A stretch of 64,000 bases of DNA from Oligoflexia bacterium (GTDB lineage Bacteria; Bdellovibrionota; UBA1018). A program made the position numbers and the translations under genes. The stretch covers positions 32,001 to 96,000 of the forward strand of contig CAVWVI010000004.1 of assembly GCA_963758495.1 (NCBI GenBank), given 5' to 3'. How positions within the stretch are numbered: the stretch's first letter is position 1; each line of letters starts with the position of its first letter. The notes beneath the pieces were generated by a model that did not search any database, was not told where the DNA came from, and saw nothing but the letters and a program-made list of their open reading frames with translations. Positions 19,242-32,882 of this stretch are shown one piece after another.

Positions 19242-19924
19242 GTGATAGTTGTTCAGCCTTGTATTTCAGAGAAGCTAGATACGCCGACCGCAAGAACCGT
19301 GACCGCTTCCCAGACGGCCTCATTGCAAGAAGTAGAACGAGCCCTTCGTCAGGTAAGTGACTCCAAGGTGAAACTCTCGAATCCTGCATGGGTATCTCGA
19401 TATCGAGTACACCATCGCCTGGCTAAACAATACGGCGTCAATCGAGTCTTTTTAGCAGATGACGTGGCACATATTCATAGCCCGGCAGGAGGCCAGGGAA
19501 TGAACACGGGACTTCAAGACGCCGCAAACCTCGTTTGGAAATTAGTACTCGCGATACGAGGGCACGATCCACTGAAACTCCTTGCTACATACAATTCCGA
19601 ACGACGCCCCATCGGAGAGAACCTCTTGGCGTCAACGGATCGAATTTTTGGAATGGTGAGCTCACCGTCAAGATGGGGCTTAGTGGTTCGAAACGTGGTA
19701 TTCTTGGACGTCGTCTGTCCCAACATCATCCTAGAATGATTGACGCTATCTCGACGGAGATTTTTTACCGTTATGGATTGGACGACCCAAATGGAACAGG
19801 CCTATATCTGGTCCGACCCGATGGACATATTGCCTTTCAAACTTCAGGACTGAGAGTGAGCGAGTTTCAGAAATTCCTTGCCAGATTTTCTGCCGGGAAG
19901 ATGACAGGCAAGACTGCGGCTTGA
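19242..19924 (+). pseudogene. FAD-dependent monooxygenase remnant
   Basis: RVFLADDVAHIHSPAGGQGMNTGLQDA and LVRPDGHI in different frames; N-terminus absent. Confidence 0.8.
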
Positions 19925-19935
19925 AGCAGTCAGCA

Positions 19936-21402
19936 TCATTTCTTGAGTTTGCCCAGTTCGTAATTTCCTCGTGGCTTTTGCAACGTCTCTGCATAAACCC
20001 GCCAGAAAAGAGCCGCAACATACCCGCGCCACGGACTCATTTTTTCAATGACTTCGCTCGGATGTTTCTCTAGGGCTCTAGCCAATATCAAGTCGCTTGA
20101 CGGAAAGGTGTCCGTGTTACGCAAGGCTTTGAGGGCCATATACTGTGCGGTCCATGGCCCAATGCCTTTAATGGTCGATACCTTTTTTATGAATTCATCA
20201 ACATCTTGAGTCGGTTCCAATGAAATTCGGTCTTCGCTGACAGCTTTACAGAAATCAACGAGGGTTTGCTTCCGGGCACCCGTAGTCTTCAAGCTTGTTA
20301 AATCTGCTTCAATGATGGTCCTTGCCGAAGGAAAGAGCTTCACGGCTTTTCCGTCGACGACTAGGTTTGACTCTTGGCCTGCTATTTCGATCAGGTCGTG
20401 AACCAAAACACGACCACGGTCTACGCTGACAAGCTGGCCAAGGATGGCTGAAATAGCGATCTCGAACGAATCCCACCCAGAAGGGAGACGAACGCCTAGA
20501 TTTCGCTTGAGAAGCTTTTTGAGCTCAGCATCTGATTCAATTGCGTTTGCGACAACCACCGGATCTGAGTTTAGATCGAAGAGATTCCTCACCCGCATAA
20601 TGATCATATGAATGATGGACGTGTCGGGAAAGTCGATCTCGACAACTAGCGATGAATTTATCGGGTCATTGGAGATCGCAATCTGTCCGACCTTTCCGTT
20701 CATTGTTACCACTCGGTGCATCTTTCCATTTTCAAACCACTCCAGATTTCCCATGCGATGGCTTTCGTAGGACTTCATAAGCCCCTCGAAGTCAAACGGT
20801 GGCCGATAAGGCACAAGAATCTTTAATCCTTCACCAACAGCCAAGGCACTTTTATTACGACGGGTTTCGCTCGGGCTATTTTTGAAACGCTCTTTGAACG
20901 CGTCGTTGAATCTGCGAATAGAGGAAAAACCGGAAGCAAAAGCAATTTCTGTGATGGAAAGGGCGGTCTCATTGATGAGCTTTCTGGCAAGATTCAAACG
21001 ATTTTCAAAAGAGAGCTGTTTAGGAGTTTTTCCGATCTCCTCTACGAACAGACGCCTAAGATGCCTGGCTGTTACGCCAAACTGATCGGCAAAACGGTCT
21101 TCATTAAAGTCGATTGTGTCTTGTGAATTTAGGATTTTTATAGCTCTTTGAACAACCGCCGACTTCCCGACCCATGCGGGCGACTGTGGTGCACTTTCGG
21201 GGCGGCATCTCATGCATGGGCGATAGCCCGCCTTCTCGGCTTCAAGGTGGGACTGAAAAAACTCAACGTTTTCTCTCTTTGGTTTTGCAGGACATATTGG
21301 ACGACAGTAGATACCTGTAGTTTTAACGCCGACGAAAAACTTCCCGTCGAATCGATAGTCCCTTGCCAACATCGCCTGGAAATAAATGTCCTCGCGCTTC
21401 AT
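19936..21402 (-). CDS. alkA: Ada-AraC/AlkA DNA-3-methyladenine glycosylase
   Basis: GIYCRPIC, RPCMRCRP, AraC HTH, GIGPWTAQY, PWRGY. Confidence 0.92.
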   Translation of the reverse strand: MKREDIYFQAMLARDYRFDGKFFVGVKTTGIYCRPICPAKPKRENVEFFQSHLEAEKAGYRPCMRCRPESAPQSPAWVGKSAVVQRAIKILNSQDTIDFNEDRFADQFGVTARHLRRLFVEEIGKTPKQLSFENRLNLARKLINETALSITEIAFASGFSSIRRFNDAFKERFKNSPSETRRNKSALAVGEGLKILVPYRPPFDFEGLMKSYESHRMGNLEWFENGKMHRVVTMNGKVGQIAISNDPINSSLVVEIDFPDTSIIHMIIMRVRNLFDLNSDPVVVANAIESDAELKKLLKRNLGVRLPSGWDSFEIAISAILGQLVSVDRGRVLVHDLIEIAGQESNLVVDGKAVKLFPSARTIIEADLTSLKTTGARKQTLVDFCKAVSEDRISLEPTQDVDEFIKKVSTIKGIGPWTAQYMALKALRNTDTFPSSDLILARALEKHPSEVIEKMSPWRGYVAALFWRVYAETLQKPRGNYELGKLKK

Positions 21403-21523
21403 AAAACCATTGTGACCTATGCTCTCAATTGATGCTAGCTGTTTTCGGACATGATCATTTCTTGGAGAAAACCCATATATTTCTTAGAAATAGAGAAATT
21501 ATAGAAGAACCGCTTATTAAGAG

Positions 21524-22222
21524 TTAGGCAGAGTAATGGTGCACGCGAACCTTCTCTTCCGTGACAAGAAAGCCTTGAAGTAGAGGGCGTACTTGATCTA
21601 AAAGTTGATGGACCCGTTCCTCTGTATCTACGATTTCCAGAATAACCGGTAAATCCGTCGACAGTCGAAGAAGCTTATCCTTATGAATGATACTGCTTGC
21701 TCCAAATCCAGAAATTCCACGTAGAATCGTACATCCCGCAATTCCGAGCGAATGCGCTCTTTCGAGAATCACAAAATGGAGGGGCTTATGCCCAATCTTG
21801 TCTGACTCTCCTACATAGATCCGCAATAAAATTTGATCTCCATCGAGAACTCTGTGTTCACGTTGCATTTGCTCTACATTCTGATGTGAATAATAATGAA
21901 CATAAACTGTCTCCTCAGTAACTAAAGATCCCTGAAGCATCGGCTTCACGACTTCAAGGTATTTTTGAATTCTTTCAGCCTCGTCTATACACTCAACCAA
22001 AATGGGGCGTTCTCCAGCTCCTTCCATGGCCATTTCGGTGTGGATAGAGCGACCGGCGCCATATCCTTCAAATGCTCGAAAGACCGTGCAACCCGCCAAA
22101 TCCGTTGCTCTCGCGTGGTCAATTAGGCTCTGATAAAGTGAATGATGATGATATTTATCAAAATCACCTATAAAGATTCGTAATAGTGAATGCACTCCAC
22201 TGTGAAGATTACGATGACTCAT
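21524..22222 (-). CDS. Tandem DUF190 (PII-like) protein
   Basis: Two repeats of LLRI..G..D...LAG.T..R...G.G. Confidence 0.85.
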   Translation of the reverse strand: MSHRNLHSGVHSLLRIFIGDFDKYHHHSLYQSLIDHARATDLAGCTVFRAFEGYGAGRSIHTEMAMEGAGERPILVECIDEAERIQKYLEVVKPMLQGSLVTEETVYVHYYSHQNVEQMQREHRVLDGDQILLRIYVGESDKIGHKPLHFVILERAHSLGIAGCTILRGISGFGASSIIHKDKLLRLSTDLPVILEIVDTEERVHQLLDQVRPLLQGFLVTEEKVRVHHYSA

Positions 22223-22306
22223 GCTGTCCCTCCGCTAATGAGTCGCCTTATAAGATACATCTCGCAAAAGGTAGACCCAAAACCTAAAGGTGATTGATCT
22301 TTCAAT

Positions 22307-23443
22307 TCAGATCAGCACTTTCGAGAGCATTTTTACTAGTTCGCGGATGGGAATTTCGACGAGCATGAGTAACAACAAGGGAAAGACGATGAGTGTGACT
22401 AGGCCAAGGAAGCAACTACGGTTCATGAGAAAAGGAGTCATCTTCTCGACATTGCTATAGCTACTGTTCAGGTCACAATCAGTGCTGATATCCTGATTTC
22501 CAAGTGGGCTTGGGCCGGAGATAGCCGACACATTCGACCAGTGATTCTCGAAATCGAGTGCAAATCGCGACCCGAAGTGCCCATAACTCTTGAGACCCTT
22601 TTTTTTTGCGACTATCAGGGATGGGGTAAACGAGGACAAAGGGAGAAAATATACGAGGCAACTGATCACAAAATATGCACAAAGACTGGGTACGAATTCC
22701 GTAAGATGGTGCCCTTCTTGTAATACAAGCTTCGCCACATTAGCCGCGAGCACGATCGAAATTGCGGTTGCAACCAATCCGAAAGCCAGATGCTGCGAAA
22801 GTAAGAAGCCCAATCCACCTGCGCGATCCGGGTGATGACTCTGCGGCCTAATGCTGGATTTTGCAATGAGTAGAAGGAAATACGACCAGAGGATATATTT
22901 CCATATCCACCGTAGAAGAATAAAATTATAAGCTAGAAGACTTATCCAGCGATACCAGAATTGTTCGAGGGCGTTGACGGCCCTTAAGGGTGGCATGTAC
23001 TTTAGAATAGCCAAAGTCATACAAAAAATAACAACATCGGCGATCTTCGAGCGCACCAAGGTCCGGATTCGGACGACTGCACGCATGGCAAGAGCTGCAT
23101 TTTCGGATTGCACCAATCCTCGTTCGAGAAATTCGGGTATCAGTCCGCGCATGCTTTTTTCGATGGGCTCTTCCAAGATGATCAACATCACCATAGCCAG
23201 CAGGAATCTGAAGTGGATGGGAAAGTTCTGAATGACCGTGACTTGGAAATCATGCTTGCCACCGATGAGAGATAGGACCATGAGTGGTAGCCACGTTAGG
23301 GTAATCCAGAAAAGAACCCGACGAGGAAGTCGGTCTTTAAGCTTGGCTTGCTTCAGTAACTGATCCATCCTATCTCCAGAGAAAAGAGTGAGGGATGGCA
23401 GGACGGCAGGTGGGGTCGTATTGAACTCACGCTTCTGCTGCAT
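22307..23443 (-). CDS. Polytopic membrane protein of unknown function
   Basis: Multiple TM segments; HPDRAGGLGFL motif. Confidence 0.7.
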   Translation of the reverse strand: MQQKREFNTTPPAVLPSLTLFSGDRMDQLLKQAKLKDRLPRRVLFWITLTWLPLMVLSLIGGKHDFQVTVIQNFPIHFRFLLAMVMLIILEEPIEKSMRGLIPEFLERGLVQSENAALAMRAVVRIRTLVRSKIADVVIFCMTLAILKYMPPLRAVNALEQFWYRWISLLAYNFILLRWIWKYILWSYFLLLIAKSSIRPQSHHPDRAGGLGFLLSQHLAFGLVATAISIVLAANVAKLVLQEGHHLTEFVPSLCAYFVISCLVYFLPLSSFTPSLIVAKKKGLKSYGHFGSRFALDFENHWSNVSAISGPSPLGNQDISTDCDLNSSYSNVEKMTPFLMNRSCFLGLVTLIVFPLLLLMLVEIPIRELVKMLSKVLI

Positions 23444-23606
23444 TGGGTCTCCTTTTGAGGAAGTAAACAGCTACTTGGTTTTTTTCGTGACTTAAGAAAG
23501 TGCAAAGTGCGAACCGGTAAATGATACTCAGCGGAGACTCCGAGTCCGTAATTTGCATCACTGAATCTCGGACAGTTAAAAAATAGGACGGAATCAGGAG
23601 GCAACG

Positions 23607-24134
23607 ATGAAACCAGCAGCGGTCGTCATCCCAAAACATGACGACAGCTTGGAAAAAGGGAAGTACGGCCCCATTTGGCGCAAAACTCCTGCTTGTTACG
23701 GATTTACTCTCATTGCGAACGTCAAAGTCGGAAAAGCTGATGTCATTCGTAGCTATGGAAACAAGCTAGCGAAGGCCCTAGAAACCGACCCTGAATTACT
23801 TGCTCCGCTCAAGCTCCACTACCTACGCTGGGTACTCTTCGACAACGACACTCGTTTTATGTACCAAGGAATTTTTGACACGAATTTCGATAAATACACC
23901 GAGGATGCGGTAGCTCTCTTCAAGAAGGCTGGCGTCGATACGGTCTTCGAAAATCTCGAAGACTTTCCAATGGACTGGAAGACGAACCCTGAGGCATTTA
24001 TCAAGTTTGTCCGAGACCACCACTGTCCGAGCTTCATCGAGTATGGTGAGTATCCCTATGTTTCTTCCGACGAGATCAAAAAAGCTCTCAAAATCAAGGA
24101 AGCCTTCTCCGTAATACTCGATCAACTGCAATGA
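23607..24134 (+). CDS. Conserved hypothetical protein, Dyp-associated
   Basis: LHYLRWVLFD..FDT.FDKY; first gene of three-gene run. Confidence 0.75.
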   Translation: MKPAAVVIPKHDDSLEKGKYGPIWRKTPACYGFTLIANVKVGKADVIRSYGNKLAKALETDPELLAPLKLHYLRWVLFDNDTRFMYQGIFDTNFDKYTEDAVALFKKAGVDTVFENLEDFPMDWKTNPEAFIKFVRDHHCPSFIEYGEYPYVSSDEIKKALKIKEAFSVILDQLQ

Positions 24135-24158
24135 TGTCCTCGCGCCAAGGAGACAGTC

Positions 24159-25235
24159 ATGAAAGAACCTGCACGAACTTATAACCAAAATCACGTGCCG
24201 AGAAAATACATTCCCAATCAACGCCGAGTAAGTATCTACATTTCTTGGAGCTACCCCGCGGAAGCTAATCACGATGTGACCGAGATGGATAACCGTTTCT
24301 CAACCATGACCGAAGTGCGAAGGGTGCTCTGGCCAGAATATGAGTCCCCCCGGTTTGCGGATCCAATGATGTTTCAACAGGGAATCGCTGGATCTCTTGA
24401 GCTATTCTTCTGGGCTTGGGTGCGGTTTCAGGATGTCGTTAGAGAGACGACAGGATATCCAGTCCCTGTGTTTCAGCGAGTCGACCAGGCGGGTTTTCCT
24501 CTTCCTCTTGACGAGCGCGTGCTTGGTGATGCTGATACTCTCATGGTGTTTGGTTTGGACCATCGAGTTACAGAGCAGGAAGCGTCCTCGGAAGAGATCG
24601 AGGCTGTTCGAGAGTTTCTCAAACGAGAAGGGACCTGCTTAGTCATTGGCCCACATCACGATGTCGGAGCCTCTCCCGATCTGAAGGAGCGCGCCATTGA
24701 ATATGCCCACCATGGTGACGCATTAGTACCCCGTCAACAGCGATTCGGGCTCTACACACGCTCACTTATGAAGGGACTCGGAATTCCCGTCGAGAACCGA
24801 TACGGCCTTCGTCCAGCTTTGGCGTCTTCTGCCCCCAGCTCTCCCGGAACAAACCGAGTCGCTCCTCTGAATATTGCGAGAGACCTGGATACACGAGGTT
24901 GGCTTGATGGAGTCACGAACTTCAATTTTCACCCTCATCTCCCCCACTATGCAGTAACTCTATCAGACGTACAATCCATCCACGTTCTTGCCAAGCAGCC
25001 GATCAATTTGTCCAAACCGCATCCATTTACTTTGGCGGGAAACACTGAGTTCAACTCTCTAGTTTGGATATCACCCAAAGCCGACAGAGCTGGCGACGTG
25101 TTGGTAGCTGATTCCACGATCTTTAGCACCTTGTTCGGACAGGATGAGAGTCTGGAACGATTTTGGAAGAATATCGCGACAGCCCGAGAAGGAAGGAAAA
25201 GACATGGACTCCAAAGAGGCCATCGTGCAGCTTGA
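24159..25235 (+). CDS. Conserved hypothetical protein, Dyp-associated
   Basis: Long ORF with GPHHDVG, HHGD, HPHLPH; overlaps Dyp start. Confidence 0.75.
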   Translation: MKEPARTYNQNHVPRKYIPNQRRVSIYISWSYPAEANHDVTEMDNRFSTMTEVRRVLWPEYESPRFADPMMFQQGIAGSLELFFWAWVRFQDVVRETTGYPVPVFQRVDQAGFPLPLDERVLGDADTLMVFGLDHRVTEQEASSEEIEAVREFLKREGTCLVIGPHHDVGASPDLKERAIEYAHHGDALVPRQQRFGLYTRSLMKGLGIPVENRYGLRPALASSAPSSPGTNRVAPLNIARDLDTRGWLDGVTNFNFHPHLPHYAVTLSDVQSIHVLAKQPINLSKPHPFTLAGNTEFNSLVWISPKADRAGDVLVADSTIFSTLFGQDESLERFWKNIATAREGRKRHGLQRGHRAA

Positions 25236-26550
25236 ACTGGACGATATCCAGAGTGGAGTTTTACGTCCCCGTCCCAATCCATACGCTGCGACTTATATTC
25301 TTATTAGAATTGATGACCGCAAAGCGGGACAAGAACTCATGCGTCGCCTAAGTACGGTGGTGGCCTCGACGGCTCATACGACAAGCCCGGCTGGCGACAC
25401 TTGGCTCAGTGCCATGCTGACCTTTGAGGGGCTCAAAAGGCTTAAAGTACCACAAGCGTCGCTTGACAGCTTTTCCTGGGAATTTAGACAAGGAATGGCC
25501 AATCGGGCTGATGCTCTGGGAGACACAGGTGAAAGCAGTCCCGAGTATTGGGAAAAACCACTCGGGACTCCGGAAGTCCACGTAGTGCTTGTCGCCCTCG
25601 CGCCAGATTCCAAGCGTCTGGAATGGGCGATAGAGGGGGCACGCAAAGCGTTCAAAGAACTGCCGGGTGTTGTCCCTATTTGGCGCCAAGACTGTCATGC
25701 ACCACCTCATCAGCGGGAGCCTTTCGGATTTCGCGACGGCATCAGTCATCCCGCCATCGAAGGAAGCGGTATTCCCGGAAGCAATCCTCAAGAGAAGCCG
25801 CTCAAAGCAGGTGAATTCGTCTTGGGATATCCAGATGAGATGGGAGATTCTCCTCCCATACCGCAACCAGATAGACTGGGGCGAAACGGAACCTATGTCG
25901 CTTTTCGTAAATTGCATCAGCGAGTGGCCGCATTTCGTCAGTATTTAAAAGAGAATTCTTCGAACTCAGACGAGGAAGAATGGATAGCAGCCAAGATGAT
26001 GGGACGTTGGCGAAGTGGCGCACCCTTGGCTCTTTGCCCGTTCCACGACGATGACGATGACGAATCCGACTTGGGAGCCGATCCACGACGCAACAACGAC
26101 TTTCTCTATCAACAAGACACGACAGGATACCAAACCCCGTTAGGGTCTCACATTCGAAGAGCAAATCCACGAGACTCATCGGTGGCAGGTGTAGTGAGAC
26201 TGCATCGAATGATCCGTCGTGGCACGGCTTACGGTCCGCCTCTTCCCGAAGGTACGTTGGAAGACGATGGCGCTGATCGTGGACTCATGTTCGCCTTTGT
26301 CGGCGCCCATCTAGGAAGGCAATTTGAATTCGTACAGTCGGAATGGGTCAACAGCGGGGAATTTCTTGGGCTTGGAGACGTAAAAGATCCTGTCGCCGGT
26401 GCACAGGAAAGAGAGGGAACCTTTTCAATTCCGAGTCGGCCAATACCAAAGCGTTTACGAGGGTTGAGTCGATTCGTGATCACCCGGGGCGGTGACTATT
26501 GTTTCATGCCAGGATTACATGCCTTGCGCTGGCTTTCAGAGCTCAAATGA
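25204..26550 (+). CDS. Dyp-type peroxidase
   Basis: FGFRDGISHP, GSHIRRANPR, RRG, QFEFVQ, GGDYCFMPG. Confidence 0.9.
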   Translation: MDSKEAIVQLELDDIQSGVLRPRPNPYAATYILIRIDDRKAGQELMRRLSTVVASTAHTTSPAGDTWLSAMLTFEGLKRLKVPQASLDSFSWEFRQGMANRADALGDTGESSPEYWEKPLGTPEVHVVLVALAPDSKRLEWAIEGARKAFKELPGVVPIWRQDCHAPPHQREPFGFRDGISHPAIEGSGIPGSNPQEKPLKAGEFVLGYPDEMGDSPPIPQPDRLGRNGTYVAFRKLHQRVAAFRQYLKENSSNSDEEEWIAAKMMGRWRSGAPLALCPFHDDDDDESDLGADPRRNNDFLYQQDTTGYQTPLGSHIRRANPRDSSVAGVVRLHRMIRRGTAYGPPLPEGTLEDDGADRGLMFAFVGAHLGRQFEFVQSEWVNSGEFLGLGDVKDPVAGAQEREGTFSIPSRPIPKRLRGLSRFVITRGGDYCFMPGLHALRWLSELK

Positions 26551-26596
26551 TCGAGATGATTCATACTGTCCCTCCGTACTTCAAGAGAGCTAAACC

Positions 26597-27043
26597 TCAA
26601 AGCTCAATCGAAAACCATTTTTGAAGGGTTGCTGGGCCCAATTGATCGTAAACATAGGATGAGAAACGACTCAACTCTTCTTCAAATTGTTCCATTGGAA
26701 TGGCAATTAGATCTTCGTCATCCGTTGGGTAGTGATGACGGAACTTGCCGAAATAGGTCTGACAAAAATCAGAATAATCCGGAGTAAATAGTATGAATGT
26801 ATGCCACATGTGATCGATGTTCACCATTTCTTCGTGGATTGCACATTTGAATTTGAGCGATTCATCTTCAGGCCTAATTTTGACATCGAGAGAATGCTTC
26901 TCTCCGAGCCACAAAAACTTCAACATTTCGGTAAATAAGTCCTGAGCTTGTTCAGCTTTCTCTGGAAAGTCTTTTTTAAAACGTCGAACGATCTTCGGGT
27001 TTTGGTAGGCTAGTATTTCCGTAAGCGTTGGGCATTTTGACAT
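26597..27043 (-). CDS. Glycine-rich-domain (GRDP/DUF1399)-like protein
   Basis: IDHMWHTFILFT.DY..FC..YFG.F.HH.P motif. Confidence 0.7.
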   Translation of the reverse strand: MSKCPTLTEILAYQNPKIVRRFKKDFPEKAEQAQDLFTEMLKFLWLGEKHSLDVKIRPEDESLKFKCAIHEEMVNIDHMWHTFILFTPDYSDFCQTYFGKFRHHYPTDDEDLIAIPMEQFEEELSRFSSYVYDQLGPATLQKWFSIEL

Positions 27044-27067
27044 AATATATTTAATATGAATAAATAG

Positions 27068-27099
27068 CCCCAGGGCTGCCTTTCGACTCAGCCCTGGGG
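27068..27099 (-). terminator. 11-bp GC-rich hairpin after small peptide gene
   Basis: CCCCAGGGCTG-N10-CAGCCCTGGGG; weak U-tract. Confidence 0.55.
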
Positions 27100-27106
27100 A
27101 GAAATA

Positions 27107-27193
27107 CTAATAACAATAAAAATAGCAATAAAGAGCCTTCTCTGTTTGAAGGCGTTTCTTTTCTAAGATTTTAGTAATGAGTGCTGACTTCAT
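27107..27193 (-). CDS. 28-aa peptide MKSALITKILEKKRLQTEKALYCYFYCY (candidate RiPP precursor or leader)
   Basis: Strong RBS GAGGAGGA upstream of ATG; below ORF-track cut-off. Confidence 0.7.
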   Translation of the reverse strand: MKSALITKILEKKRLQTEKALYCYFYCY

Positions 27194-27319
27194 GTATCCT
27201 CCTCAATTTCTAAGTCCATTAATTTTTAACTCCGTTTGATGCGAGATGGATGCATGAGTAATGCCGAAGTGAGTTAAGCTGCCTAGTAAGACTCCAGTGC
27301 CATTTTCCTAGGGTCCTCA

Positions 27320-27928
27320 TCAAGCCTTTGTGGCAACAACTGCGACCACTGCAACGGGCTTCATCATCTTCCTTTCAATTTGGATATTCTTAAGTCCAGC
27401 TTGGCGCAATGATTCCGCAATTTCGTTGCCTTTTGCAAACGCATCCTCATCGGTTGCACCAGGATATCTTGGCAGATAGGCAGTCACAACCTCTCCGCCT
27501 GATTTCAATAAGCTACGCAGTCTCCCAAAAATCGAACCTGGGCTCTCCCAAAACTGAACAACATTCACGGAGTATATTTTGTCAAATAGGCCGAGGGTGT
27601 TGTCTAGTTCGCCTGCCGACCCTAAAAAAAGCTTCAGTTTCTCTTTTCTAATTAACTCTTTGTTACGACGGGTAGCCTGATTGAGCATGACTATTGAATG
27701 ATCAATTCCAACAACTTCAGCGGCGATTTTAGCGGCCTTTCCTATAGCGATGCCAGGTCCAAACCCAATTTCTAGAATTCGATCTGTCGGCTTGATTTTA
27801 AGAAGTGAGAGAGTCCAATCGCTTCGTTCGATATTAGATCGACGAGTGGCCATGATATGGCCAATTAACCTACCCAATATGCCATACGGCTTTTCAAATT
27901 GACCACTCACGTGATGGAAAATATTCAT
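27320..27928 (-). CDS. Class I SAM-dependent methyltransferase
   Basis: ILEIGFGPG motif I; FDKIYSVN. Confidence 0.88.
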   Translation of the reverse strand: MNIFHHVSGQFEKPYGILGRLIGHIMATRRSNIERSDWTLSLLKIKPTDRILEIGFGPGIAIGKAAKIAAEVVGIDHSIVMLNQATRRNKELIRKEKLKLFLGSAGELDNTLGLFDKIYSVNVVQFWESPGSIFGRLRSLLKSGGEVVTAYLPRYPGATDEDAFAKGNEIAESLRQAGLKNIQIERKMMKPVAVVAVVATKA

Positions 27929-28080
27929 AGACTCTCACCTCATGCAAAATCGGCGTAGTGTGCTTCCATCGATTTCAAAGTCATCCGACTCATGCTCCCT
28001 TGTTTTTCTTTTTATTTTTGCTTAATCCTTAAGTGAGTTCTTTCTATTCCACCATTCAGAAATAATAAGGAATGTAGCTC

Positions 28081-28965
28081 ATGATTGACTCGACTCCAGA
28101 TCACAGCAAGATCAGTCCGACTGCAAAAATAGTCGCCTATTGGCGCCAGTTTAGCGACATACCTTTTGCTCATGAAGTAGCCAAAATGGTGCGTGCCGAC
28201 GAGATCTTTAAAACATTTCTTGAAGATTCACACTGGGTCGTCGAAGACATATCTTGGTTTGCCATGATGATTGAGGCGCGGTATAAAAGCATGGTCAACG
28301 CCATCCGACGCGAAAATATTAAGCAGGTCTTGGAACTAGCAAGTGGTGTTTCCCTCCGAGGCTTTGCGATGACTTCAGATCCAGAAATGATCTATGTTGA
28401 AACAGATTTGCCTGAGATCTCTTCTGAGAAGATAGCAATTATCCAAAGTATACGAGAAAAAAAGAACATCCCAGAGAGAGCCAACCTTTTTTTTAACGAA
28501 CTGAATGTCCTGAATTTGATTGAATTCGAAAAAGCCACCCGTCCCTTTCTTGCTAGTAGCCCGATCGCAATTATTCACGAGGGATTATTCCAGTATCTTT
28601 CCATTGAAGAGAAAAGACTGGCAGCTACCCATATTCATATTGTTCTCGAAAGATTTGGTGGTGTATGGCTGACACCTGATCTGACCACCAAAAGTGACAT
28701 TGATATGCGACAGCATCCTTCTGCGACTATGAAAAAAATTACAGAAAATGTTCAAAAAACGACTCAAAGAGATTTTAGGGAATTAGCTTTTGAAAACGAA
28801 ACCCATATTCAGGAATTTTTCAACGAACTTGGGTTTAAAATCCAAGAATCCTCACAGATTGACAATACCTTTGCACTGACCTCAGTTAAGAAACTGAATA
28901 TCTCGCAAGATATTGTTAATTCTTACTCGAATAATCTTAAGATTTGGAGCCTGCGAGTAAAATAA
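28081..28965 (+). CDS. SAM-dependent methyltransferase (leucine-carboxyl-MTase-like)
   Basis: QVLELASG, YVETDLP, EGLFQYL. Confidence 0.75.
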   Translation: MIDSTPDHSKISPTAKIVAYWRQFSDIPFAHEVAKMVRADEIFKTFLEDSHWVVEDISWFAMMIEARYKSMVNAIRRENIKQVLELASGVSLRGFAMTSDPEMIYVETDLPEISSEKIAIIQSIREKKNIPERANLFFNELNVLNLIEFEKATRPFLASSPIAIIHEGLFQYLSIEEKRLAATHIHIVLERFGGVWLTPDLTTKSDIDMRQHPSATMKKITENVQKTTQRDFRELAFENETHIQEFFNELGFKIQESSQIDNTFALTSVKKLNISQDIVNSYSNNLKIWSLRVK

Positions 28966-28995
28966 TTTCCATCAAACTATCTAGATCGTTTGGGT

Positions 28996-30726
28996 TCATG
29001 CAGCCCTCTTCAAATCGAGAAACTGTCTCGATTTCAACCCGCTCAAGTATTGATGCACCCATTGAATCACAATAGACCCCTCACCCACCGCTGAGGCCAC
29101 TCGTTTTACTGATTCCGAGCGGACATCGCCTACCGCAAAAATTCCTGGCTCAGCCGTCTCGTATGGAGAGCGTAAAGGTGATCCTGCCTTTGTTTTTCCG
29201 GTAAGAACAAATCCTTTTGGATCGAGTGCGATACACTTTCGGAGCCAATCCGTGTTTGGAATGGCTCCTATCATAACAAACACGTTTCGGATGGGCTTTG
29301 TCCAGTGTCGATGGTTCGCTGACGATTTCCATTCTACTTCCTCAAGGAACTTTTGGCCCGATAGCCCTGATAAACGGGTGATTTCGGTTTCGTAGTAAAT
29401 CTGAACTTTGGATGAGGCCTGAATACGTTCGACGAGATAGTTTGACATTGTCTCGGAAAGAGCCTTGCCTCTGACCAGCATGTGAACTTTCGCGGCCGAT
29501 TGACTCAGATAAATGGCAGCTTGCCCCGCTGAATTACCTCCTCCCACTACCACGACCTCTTCTCCGGAACAAAGCTGGGCTTCCATTGCCATTGCCGCGT
29601 AGTAGATCCCTCGTCCCTCAAATTGCTGGTAATTGGGGAGATCGAGTTTTCGATATCTAGCACCTGACGCCACGACCAACGCACGCGTGCGCACTTTCGT
29701 CTGGTCGCACAATAAAACTTCAAATACCCCATCTTGCGCCCTGGTGACGTCGGTGACGGCTCTAGCGATCGCCATATGCACGCCAAACTTTAAGGCCTGG
29801 ACTTGTGCACGAGAGGCAAGCTCAACGCCTGAGATCCCGTTAGGAAACCCAAGATAGTTTTCGATACGAGAGCTTGTTCCTGCCTGACCACCAGGTGCGA
29901 GAGCTTCGAGTACTACTGTATCCAGCCCTTCGGAAGCAGCATAAACAGAAGCTGCCAGTCCTGCCGGGCCACCCCCTACAATCCCCACATCATAAGTGTG
30001 CTCAAGAGGAAATGCCTCCAAAAGACCAATTTCAGCGGCAAGTTGATGAAGACTAGGATTTTTAAATAAACTATGTTTTGAATCCACAACGACTGGAAGA
30101 TCCTCCAAACGCAATGATAAAGATGTAAGAATAGAACGTCCATCTTCTCCTTTTGCGTCGGGAGGAATGAACCGATAAGGGTAAGCGTTACGTATCAGAA
30201 ATTGCCGAATACGAAGTAAATCAGGATCCTGAGTCGCTCCAATCAGAGTGACGCCCGCCGTCCCATGACGGATAATACTACTTCGACGAAGAACATAGGC
30301 TCGAAGAATGAGTTCTCCTAGTTCAGGTTCTGCCACAAGCATTCGTCTAAAGTCTTTATACTGAACTCTGAGAACACGTGTAGGAGTTGAAGTTCGAGCA
30401 TTGATCAAACTCTTACGTCCGCTAAACTGGCTCATCTCACCGGGGAAATTACTAGCTTTATGAATTACAAGCACTCGATCTTTGCCGCAGTTATCTGTCT
30501 CGTAAGCCTCAATAGCTCCTTGGAGCACGACGTAAAAGTCGACATTCCGATCTCCACGCTGATAGAGAATATGACCAGTTGGAAAATCTGCCTCTTCTCC
30601 GAATGAACGAATTGCGTTCAGGTGATCAGTTGTCAGCTTAGGAAACGCCTCAGCAAGTCGAAACGTATCCAATGAACCATCTGAATTCTTTAGAAAAAAT
30701 ATATTCTGCCAAATATCTAAGTCCAT
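28996..30726 (-). CDS. cNMP-domain thioredoxin-reductase-like FAD oxidoreductase
   Basis: cNMP N-terminus; GGGPAG, GGQAGTSSRIENYLGFP, GGGNSAGQ, GDVR. Confidence 0.88.
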   Translation of the reverse strand: MDLDIWQNIFFLKNSDGSLDTFRLAEAFPKLTTDHLNAIRSFGEEADFPTGHILYQRGDRNVDFYVVLQGAIEAYETDNCGKDRVLVIHKASNFPGEMSQFSGRKSLINARTSTPTRVLRVQYKDFRRMLVAEPELGELILRAYVLRRSSIIRHGTAGVTLIGATQDPDLLRIRQFLIRNAYPYRFIPPDAKGEDGRSILTSLSLRLEDLPVVVDSKHSLFKNPSLHQLAAEIGLLEAFPLEHTYDVGIVGGGPAGLAASVYAASEGLDTVVLEALAPGGQAGTSSRIENYLGFPNGISGVELASRAQVQALKFGVHMAIARAVTDVTRAQDGVFEVLLCDQTKVRTRALVVASGARYRKLDLPNYQQFEGRGIYYAAMAMEAQLCSGEEVVVVGGGNSAGQAAIYLSQSAAKVHMLVRGKALSETMSNYLVERIQASSKVQIYYETEITRLSGLSGQKFLEEVEWKSSANHRHWTKPIRNVFVMIGAIPNTDWLRKCIALDPKGFVLTGKTKAGSPLRSPYETAEPGIFAVGDVRSESVKRVASAVGEGSIVIQWVHQYLSGLKSRQFLDLKRAA

Positions 30727-30893
30727 TCTCAAGTCTCCCTTCTCTTTTTTCCATATGAATCGCCATTGCAAGAGTAAAACCGTTACAATAATGTAAATGC
30801 ATCTACCCTGCAAAAAAGGCTTCGCTCCTCCATCCTATTGATGCTTTGAGATATGAATAAAAAATCTCCAAACTAATTGTGACAAACGAGTCA

Positions 30894-31046
30894 CTAAGGC
30901 AATGGCTTGCGCCCACGAATAATTCTGAGAATGACCACAATGATGGCAATGACTAGAAGAATATGTATCAATCCACCTAAGGTATAGCTGGTAGCGAACC
31001 CCAGAATCCACAAAAGAACCAAGATGACCACAATTGATTCAAGCAC
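30894..31046 (-). CDS. lmo0937-family small membrane protein
   Basis: Manual translation MLESIVVILVLLWILGFATSYTLGGLIHILLVIAIIVVILRIIRGRKPLP. Confidence 0.8.
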   Translation of the reverse strand: MLESIVVILVLLWILGFATSYTLGGLIHILLVIAIIVVILRIIRGRKPLP

Positions 31047-31331
31047 AAGTCTCTCCCGAGGCATATGCCCCTTATGGTTCCCCTAAGGTTTGCAATTTTC
31101 ATTCTATAGGATAAATCTTGCGGCGTAGGTCAAATGTTGCATACATGCAGCCCACCCCCTTCAGCCATATACACCACATATTAGCTTGGTTTGAACACTC
31201 CCTTATCAACCTTCTTGAAATATAACTCATTTCAAGTGCCGCAGCATAATACGTCAATAATGCTATAGATTTTTTATTATTTATAGGTAATATAAATCAT
31301 TCAATTAATCTTTTTTGAGGAGAAAAAGAAT

Positions 31332-31895
31332 ATGAAGAAGTCCATTAGGATGAGTGGGATATTCTTAATACTATTTGCAGCTTCCATGCTTCAAGCAAGT
31401 TCTCTAGAAACTGCGACGTTTTCAGCAGGCTGTTTTTGGGGAACTGAAGAATTTTTTAGAAAAGTGCCAGGTGTGATTGAAACACGAGTTGGCTATACAG
31501 GCGGCTCCGGAAGAGTTTCTTACGAAGAAGTAAGTTCCGGAAATACAGGTCATACGGAGTCGGTTGAAATCCAGTTTGATTCCAAAAAAGTGACTTATCG
31601 GGACCTACTTGTTCTTTTCTTTAAGATGCACGATCCGACAACCCGAAATCAACAGGGGAACGACCACGGAACTCAATACAGGTCGGCTATATTCACCCAC
31701 TCTGAGAAACAACGAAAGATCGCAGAAGAATTGACGGCAAAAATCAACAAGTCCGGGGCGTGGAAAAAACCTCTGACAACTGAGATCACAAAAGCAAACA
31801 CGTTCTATCCGGCAGAGGAATACCATCAAAAATATCTTGTAAAGCACCCTGATGGCTATGACAACCACTACCTGAGAGATTTAAAATTTGAATGA
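31332..31895 (+). CDS. msrA: Peptide-methionine (S)-S-oxide reductase with signal peptide
   Basis: GCFWG, GTQYRS, AEEYHQKY. Confidence 0.95.
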   Translation: MKKSIRMSGIFLILFAASMLQASSLETATFSAGCFWGTEEFFRKVPGVIETRVGYTGGSGRVSYEEVSSGNTGHTESVEIQFDSKKVTYRDLLVLFFKMHDPTTRNQQGNDHGTQYRSAIFTHSEKQRKIAEELTAKINKSGAWKKPLTTEITKANTFYPAEEYHQKYLVKHPDGYDNHYLRDLKFE

Positions 31896-31961
31896 ATGAA
31901 CAAATTTATTATTCGCTGGCCACCCGTTGACTTGAAAAAACAAATGTGAAATAATTTTAGT

Positions 31962-32882
31962 ATGAACAAACCAAGCTCAATTGAACTCAACTCCGGAGAG
32001 AGAATTGAGAGAAGCCAAATCAATTGGAACTTGGTTTATTATTTTTCAGAAATTGCAGCAGCAGGTTCGATTAAAGATGCTGCCGATAAGCTTGAATTGA
32101 GTCCATCCACACTCAGCTCCCATCTCTCCCAACTAGAAAAAGACCTCTCTGTACAATTGTTCTATCGACAGCATCGCAAACTCACTCTTACTCCTGAAGG
32201 TAACCGACTCTATTTTCGTGCAAAGGAAATGTTCGAGGCAGGACAAAGACTCCTCAATGTCGTTGCTCCTGTACCTCTGGGGTGCTATCCGATCTCAATT
32301 GGACTGGTCCCAAGCCCGTCCATTCAGGTTGCTTACCGCATTATCGGCGAATGCTTGCGTCGTCAAAAACACTTGAACATGAAGTTATTCCATTCAGGTT
32401 ACAACGATCTTGAGACCGGACTGGTAAGCTCCAAATATGACTTTGGCTTTTCTGACCGTATTCCAGAACGAAAAGATCTGATCTGCCACCGGATTTCCCA
32501 CTCTCCCATAAAGTTCTTTGTTTCGGATAAATGGGCAAATACTTCATTTTCAGAACTGCTTTCGCAACTTCCGCTTCTGATCTGTAACGCAGAACCCTCA
32601 CAGAGGAGCTTTGCTGAACAGGTCCTCATTGAGGCAGACCTCACACCCTCATCTGTAGTCACATCCGATTATCCAAGCGCACTCCTTGATCTTTGTCAGG
32701 ATGGACTAGGGATTGGAGTATTCAGTGAAGCTGAAGGGCTGAAGTCTTTACGAGTACCCAGAGATGCTCCAAAACTACAAGATATTCTGTACATTCTATG
32801 GTCAAATGAAGCCGAAAATACTGCGGCCGTTCGACTTCTAAAATCAATAACACCTTTAGAAAAAGCCTTTGGAACCAGTTAA
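31962..32882 (+). CDS. LysR-family regulator (NhaR-like)
   Basis: N-terminal LysR HTH; paralog of 37468-38409. Confidence 0.88.
   Translation: MNKPSSIELNSGERIERSQINWNLVYYFSEIAAAGSIKDAADKLELSPSTLSSHLSQLEKDLSVQLFYRQHRKLTLTPEGNRLYFRAKEMFEAGQRLLNVVAPVPLGCYPISIGLVPSPSIQVAYRIIGECLRRQKHLNMKLFHSGYNDLETGLVSSKYDFGFSDRIPERKDLICHRISHSPIKFFVSDKWANTSFSELLSQLPLLICNAEPSQRSFAEQVLIEADLTPSSVVTSDYPSALLDLCQDGLGIGVFSEAEGLKSLRVPRDAPKLQDILYILWSNEAENTAAVRLLKSITPLEKAFGTS

Follow-up and report, generated by a model that had tools for sequence, protein, structure and literature searches.

A short cysteine-bearing peptide gene paired with a PF27765-family gene suggests a two-gene RiPP-type system

Within the window, by which we mean the whole 64,000-nucleotide stretch of DNA that was analysed, a gene for a 28-aa peptide lies ahead of a gene for a 148-aa protein of the uncharacterised family PF27765 (UCP032817-like), to which its homologues also belong. 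The tie between peptide and partner holds across phyla, the peptides are under selection at the protein level, and in them a conserved leader and a variable Cys core are set a nearly constant distance apart. We lean towards reading the pair as a substrate and the enzyme that modifies its Cys, an enzyme that would depend on the leader and probably use a metal; such a pair would make a new RiPP-type class of two genes. The catalytic step is one that we infer. Dozens of the peptide genes are too short for annotation, and the protein family has accordingly passed for a hypothetical protein that stands alone. The family libraries and papers that we searched attach neither a function nor a partner peptide to PF27765, and the literature, mostly outside subscription journals, yielded no paper on the domain as a peptide partner.

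Table 1. Positions of the features discussed. Plain numbers refer to the window; L numbers denote loci from other genomes.
Feature	Position	Strand	Basis
28-aa peptide gene	27107..27193	(-)	sequence; leader HMM from other genomes matches, E 6e-4
Shine-Dalgarno GAGGAGG of the peptide gene	27198..27204	(-)	sequence
11-bp hairpin between peptide and partner gene	27068..27099	(-)	folding
148-aa PF27765 (UCP032817-like) all-helical protein, candidate maturase	26597..27043	(-)	family match, model, alignment
Class I SAM methyltransferase, co-oriented, 126 nt upstream of the peptide gene	27320..27928	(-)	family match
LCM-family methyltransferase, divergent	28081..28965	(+)	family match
Cys-Cys peptides of the distant paralogue	L175:2314-2391, L176:2280-2357, L179:1726-1803, L180:2008-2097		

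A single-copy peptide gene with a strong ribosome-binding site

The earlier note had singled out the 28-aa ORF for its strong ribosome-binding site, and both are real, with GAGGAGG standing 4 nt ahead of the ATG. The peptide consists of a basic amphipathic leader (approximately residues 2-15), a spacer, and a core with Cys23 and Cys27 that ends in YCYFYCY and is encoded by a low-complexity run of TAT/TGT/TTT-type codons. The 3.66-Mb genome has 662 ORFs of 12-60 aa led by a ribosome-binding site, and no other one of them closes with seven residues that are each aromatic or Cys. The peptide is present there as a single copy; a candidate second copy at C4:565712 was rejected as a chance match, being weak and having neither a start codon nor Cys. 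The aromatic core had been taken as a feature to look for in homologues, but it is peculiar to the window copy, the most aromatic of 65 aligned peptides. Only 4 of the 65 have two or more Tyr, and it is Cys that is conserved, being present in all 65.

The peptide accompanies the PF27765 gene at related loci

Loci around homologues of the partner were collected from genomes (80) and from metagenomes (73), and a leader profile was built from 35 leaders (residues 1-18) of the genome loci. The window peptide belonged to the first seed that chose the training leaders and is absent from the final model. The held-out metagenome set comprised 65 loci, 7 duplicates and 1 locus without a domain call having been removed. 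At E≤0.1, a leader was found no more than 700 nt from the domain gene in 25 of these 65 loci, and the 331,521 nt of held-out sequence contained no match farther away. A few of the held-out loci are, however, close kin of training loci. Of 31 held-out loci in which a close homologue had 300 nt or more of DNA upstream, 19 passed at the same threshold.

Over the genome and metagenome sets together, a peptide adjoins 89 of 98 close homologues, with 74 recognized by HMM (E≤10 plus a Cys) and 15 by eye, two of the latter looking frameshifted; none was found near the other 9. Short ORFs with Cys/aromatic ends upstream of homologues were what the earlier note had proposed to look for, and with adjacent peptides at this frequency its preset refutation test was passed. 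The 6 of 24 distant homologues with a peptide are to be read as a floor, because a distant paralogue proved to own a CC-ending peptide. Three true homologues occur among 40 relatives of the window genome, and all three have a leader-like CC peptide upstream, as judged by eye. In one bacterial family that was sampled, 28 genomes matched the domain strongly, and the peptide was matched in 22 of them, as against 0 of the 121 others; 9 of the 22 positive genomes had been met earlier in the analysis, and two genomes went unscored. Twenty-seven of the 31 peptide matches in this sample adjoin a domain gene, and 3 of the 4 that do not are intact stand-alone peptide genes.

Stand-alone peptide genes were seen at L171:1810-1899, L172:1418-1498, L174:1469-1597 and L173:652-765, where the DNA collected contained no gene for the domain; the genomes concerned carry the domain elsewhere.

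Selection acts on the encoded peptide. In 15 related 29-aa genes, pN/pS was 0.29 in frame, as against 1.16 and 1.44 in the shifted frames, and it was low in both parts of the peptide (leader, 0.34; core, 0.21). The leader follows the consensus MKxxLIxKIxxKK and is succeeded by a spacer and then by Cys, the first of which lies 17-18 residues past the LI motif in 42 of 60 peptides. At least two Cys are present in 60 of the 65 aligned peptides; the number in the core ranges from 1 to 11, their spacing is variable, and His is common. Two traits of a RiPP system can be recognized here, namely a gene-encoded precursor with a conserved leader and a variable core, and the genetic tie of that precursor to a candidate modifying protein. 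No Pfam or NCBIfam precursor family (NHLP, Nif11, SCIFF, bufferin and others) was matched by more than 2 of the 65 peptides. At L092:1973-2164 and L098:450-656, the same leader is followed by long, repeated Arg/Ser/Cys cores with 10-11 Cys.

The domain has a distant paralogue that is widely kept and is accompanied by an unannotated peptide of its own, 25-29 aa long, which ends in Cys-Cys and overlaps the start of the paralogue gene. In 3 of 4 loci (L175, L176, L179, L180), this pair lies between ahpC/ahpD and a dotU-type gene.

A hairpin separates the two genes where they are not closely spaced

The hairpin reported to follow the peptide ORF is real. Its stem is perfect, begins 7 nt past the peptide stop and ends 24 nt ahead of the next ATG, and it folds at -26.2 kcal/mol (z -3.3), a value equalled by 1 of 200 shuffled sequences. 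It lacks a U-tract, and terminator calling gave no terminator there. Across loci, hairpins part the peptide and partner genes when these are not close together: 31 of 45 loci with a spacer of at least 30 nt fold at z<-2, as against 2 of 21 with a shorter spacer and 7 of 66 upstream control stretches. The structure of the stems is conserved and they share no common sequence. Stems located 3' of a precursor gene usually give precursor in excess over enzyme; our literature search on hairpins behind precursor genes found nothing. In the window, the partner gene has no Shine-Dalgarno site, and promoter calling gave no sigma-70-like promoter for the minus strand. The layout of precursor, hairpin and enzyme that had been proposed from the window stands as regards the adjacent peptide and the hairpin, which recur at homologues, and is still conjectural as regards the enzyme.

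The same arrangement could be that of a leader peptide which senses Cys or Tyr and thereby attenuates the gene that follows; a Tyr/Cys-sensing leader had been named as the alternative. Mycobacterial polycysteine sORFs are such attenuating leader peptides, according to the accessible part of bioRxiv 10.1101/834739. Cys codons near the 3' end, a hairpin past the stop and the placement of 78 of 83 peptides upstream of the domain gene on the same strand would all suit this function. An attenuator, however, would always lie in cis and upstream, would conserve its sensing codons only and would have an alternative RNA structure over a terminator or RBS, and this is not the pattern of the loci. The N-terminal half is conserved as protein (the leader pN/pS given above), and the Tyr codons are not conserved. 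Peptide genes also lie downstream (L080, L132), on the opposite strand (L025, L040, L048), alone, or fused to the domain, and are duplicated in L009 and L088. Moreover, 21 of 66 lie within 30 nt of the next gene, 19 of these without a hairpin, and the window stem has no U-tract. We regard attenuation as the least probable of the explanations discussed here, and return to the reading of the ORF as a precursor.

The partner is a small helical protein with conserved Asp, His, Tyr and Cys residues

The partner had been described as a His-rich, GRDP/DUF1399-like enzyme. It matches PF27765.1 in precomputed family models (Atlas 0.97, 233/256 features) and gave no match to PF07173, the GRDP-like family, at E≤0.1. 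At E≤10, PF07173 was matched nowhere in the window genome, and control genomes gave no match either; it is also absent among the families listed (25 of 33) for 141 partner homologues. Kinship with GRDP is a lead only, because it stems from one Atlas cluster, scoring 0.89, that carries both PF27765 (54%) and PF07173 (18%). GRDP-like/DUF1399 proteins and the plant glycine-rich domain proteins have a Gly-rich C-terminal region, whereas the window partner has none and ends right after the domain; some of its distant relatives carry Cys-rich tails. Nor does "His-rich" describe it well, with 6 His, three of them conserved.

An alignment of 141 homologues has D77, W80 and Y90 in every sequence, H81 and H104 in 140, H103 in 132 and C94 in 124; H78 is not conserved. 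The residue types, together with the i, i+4 positions that D77 and H81 hold on a single helix, suggest a metal site. An AlphaFold2 model of the protein is all-helical and of high confidence (pLDDT 95, pTM 0.90). No solved structure resembling the partner was found by sequence, and comparison of the model with solved structures gave a best E of 1.2 in Foldseek and a best Z of 3.7 (rmsd 4.5, 85 aligned) in VIA-align against 48,161 chains. The absence of a fold match does not prove a new fold.

PF27765-type homologues are numerous: one search gave 1,154 proteins and another, at E≤0.001, 4,790 representatives; viral contigs queried with the window partner gave no match. Their distribution is patchy, and one two-gene unit lies on a plasmid. 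Such patchy, two-gene units, along with a median net charge of +5 for the peptides, could also be expected if the peptide were a small cationic bioactive agent and the domain an immunity protein or antitoxin masking its N-terminal helix. Stand-alone peptide genes and fused forms speak against this, as do expression signals weighted towards the peptide rather than the partner and the presence of tailoring enzymes, and we consider an immunity function very improbable.

Several proteins unite the two components, in keeping with a substrate-enzyme pair. In P0229 and P0260 the domain is followed by a linker, a leader-like helix and a Cys-rich end, and in P0149 a leader stands N-terminal to the domain (leader HMM E 0.002 among 83 extensions). 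The likeness of the C-terminal helices to the leader was judged by eye, the HMM giving E 3.5 for P0260 and no match for P0229. In the predicted structure of P0260 (pTM 0.87), pLDDT is 66-73 in the linker, 95-96 in the leader-like helix (residues 171-190) and 49-65 in the Cys tail. A docked leader and a free core would be expected to produce such a pattern of confidence, although a helix of high pLDDT is no map of contacts.

The domain is found in other architectures as well. It ends glycosyltransferase-like proteins (L084:1370-3139 by Pfam, P0254 by likeness), is N-terminal to a domain without assignment in P0121, and is duplicated in P0134 and P0169, one of which has Cys-rich tails. Relatives encode proteins of 520-530 aa (L006:1231-2823, L007:1276-2841) with a weak N-terminal domain match and no Pfam match, each behind a possible short ORF and ahead of a solute-binding-like gene.

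Accessory genes in other lineages suggest a modified peptide

Genes for second enzymes accompany particular core types. A CsiD/TauD-type dioxygenase gene is present in 8 loci with CHPCIGC-type cores, and a P450 gene in 5 loci (4 co-oriented) with cores ending in the CC-x-H type. These loci are not independent, because they are mostly kin in the homologue tree, which was made by a quick method and has many open forks. The position of the window protein near the P450-linked group was weakly supported in this tree and was not used as evidence. A TehB-like methyltransferase occurs in 12 loci, and TPMT adjoins the domain gene or is fused to the domain, the fusion occurring in 3 proteins (P0122, P0127 and P0130). 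The groups that TPMT and TehB modify are thiols or chalcogens, so that a sulfur-centred product fits. Methyltransferases account for 16 of 243 genes adjacent to the domain and 1 of 765 others. We take this count as a hint only, for it is circular: adjacent genes supplied the seeds of the models, and one family makes up 12 of the 16. A MurJ-like gene lies near 14 loci in varied orientation, an ABC transporter near 5, and HxlR or LysR regulators near some. Clusters of neighbouring genes included no conserved protease or exporter, and no MurJ or ABC transporter gene stands beside the window cassette.

Binding of the pair could also serve a different end, the peptide being a Cys peptide of metallothionein type that stays unmodified and the domain its chaperone, metal loader or redox partner. 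The free variation in Cys number and spacing, the frequency of His in the cores and the lack of a conserved protease are all compatible with such a function. So is the genomic setting: genes for copper resistance lie beside several loci (multicopper oxidase/CopB in L012, L083 and L101; RND efflux in L016), the distant paralogue with its CC-ending peptide lies beside ahpC/ahpD, and the window region has genes for DyP, thioredoxin reductase, MsrA and a chromate transporter. Against it, the leader-to-Cys distance is nearly fixed, and the P450 and dioxygenase genes directly behind the domain, with core types to match, would be difficult to account for if the peptide stayed unmodified. A core that combines bulky aromatics with one or two Cys, as the window core does, chelates poorly unless modified. 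We judge an unmodified peptide to be unlikely, though to be kept in mind, and prefer a Cys-modifying domain.

Comparison with known peptide-maturation systems

MNIO (DUF692) systems, which include bufferins, oxazolins, methanobactins and TIGR04222, are likewise small clusters in which Cys is the likely target, and are likewise found in a metal-stress context and in Legionellales, according to the part of PMC12452194 available. That part treats MNIO-linked Cys precursors and does not bring in the PF27765 domain. The systems differ in that the 168 PF27765 loci contain no MNIO or MNIO partner gene, the unit has a 148-aa helical domain in place of the MNIO enzyme, and the peptides, judged from their composition, lack a Sec-type hydrophobic signal. 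The adjamnio-IV group (119-146 aa, CxxCC; Fig. S3 of PMC12452194) could include tailed members of the PF27765 family.

The domain might instead be a leader-binding scaffold, like the MNIO partner proteins, with the chemistry performed by an enzyme encoded elsewhere, such as DUF692/MNIO. MNIO substrates are mostly Cys peptides (PMC12452194, accessible part), and an MNIO gene is present in 35 of 47 cassette genomes as against 14 of 41 relatives of the window genome, a comparison that is no matched control because the taxa differ. However, tblastn with an MNIO and its partner as queries found no match in the 168 loci, and MNIO was not seen in 12 of the 47 cassette genomes, many of them MAGs of which completeness is not given, including one (G050) with two cassettes. 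The single MNIO of the window genome has a precursor and partner of its own, and the invariant His, Asp and Tyr residues suit an active site better than a scaffold. A purely scaffolding domain is quite improbable in our estimation, and an enzymatic one is preferred.

A separate MNIO cluster was noted on another contig of the window genome (L164:764-2672, contig C3), consisting of a signal-peptide-like precursor with two Cys, a DUF692 enzyme and a partner gene.

Split and fused routes are known for burpitides (accessible part of PMC11253845). As in burpitides and in borosins (bioRxiv 10.1101/2021.12.24.474128, accessible part), the PF27765 domain too occurs with a separate precursor or with a fused Cys tail. 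We found no sequence or fold link of PF27765 to BURP domains or to borosin methyltransferases, and the comparison concerns the manner of working.

A model for the two-gene unit

In the model that we favour, the strong ribosome-binding site and the hairpin would yield more peptide than partner. The basic leader helix would dock on the helical PF27765 domain, as the predicted structure of the fused relative suggests, and docking would set the first Cys at a putative cluster of the conserved Asp/His/His/His/Tyr/Cys. This cluster may bind a metal and modify the Cys, most likely oxidatively, and candidate products are of the thioether cross-link or thio-heterocycle/thioamide type. In some lineages a second enzyme (P450, CsiD-type Fe/2-oxoglutarate dioxygenase or thiol-type methyltransferase) might then decorate the product. 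The peptide would most likely serve in metal or thiol stress, either in the cytoplasm or after export; this is the weakest step.

More broadly, and tentatively, PF27765 proteins may be metalloenzymes of a new fold that modify Cys, in split and in fused, self-modifying forms, and may define a RiPP class spread over many phyla with P450, dioxygenase and S-methyltransferase sub-classes. If so, the distant GRDP/DUF1399 proteins with Cys-rich tails would also acquire a testable function. Were the domain to modify Cys, RiPP chemistry would be enriched by an enzyme fold and a peptide class that are both new, and a leader that tolerates very different cores would be useful for peptide engineering. For a large, uncharacterised family without a solved fold, it is hard to conceive of a test system much smaller than a 148-residue protein and a 28-residue peptide.

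Genes flanking the cassette in the window

Both methyltransferase genes reported beside the cassette are present as claimed. A conserved unit of four genes including them was rejected, for neither has a counterpart in the 168 related loci; one earlier search of such loci with the window genes gave a single 21% match (E 9e-4). The unit is therefore taken as two genes and a hairpin. The LCM-like gene has a 66% identical paralogue in the same genome (L170, G000:C3:1562958-1563824). Neither this paralogue nor two orthologues have a cassette within their 1.5-kb flanks, and one genome with an orthologue is without any domain match. The LCM-family gene is probably a bystander. An unrelated gene of the LCM family flanks the cassette in L016/L021. 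It is doubtful that the co-oriented methyltransferase belongs to the unit and plays a TPMT/TehB-like part.

The DyP peroxidase was considered as a Tyr cross-linker and rejected, as its gene is convergent, lies last in a distinct run of three higher-GC genes and is without a counterpart in the 168 related loci. This run, on the (+) strand at 23607-26550 (GC approximately 0.52, against 0.42), encodes two proteins without a Pfam family and then the DyP-type peroxidase, which has a short Asp run. The wider region from 17842 to 32882 is rich in stress genes, with a chromate transporter, Ada/AlkA, tandem DUF190, DyP, MsrA, a thioredoxin reductase with a cNMP domain and a LysR regulator.
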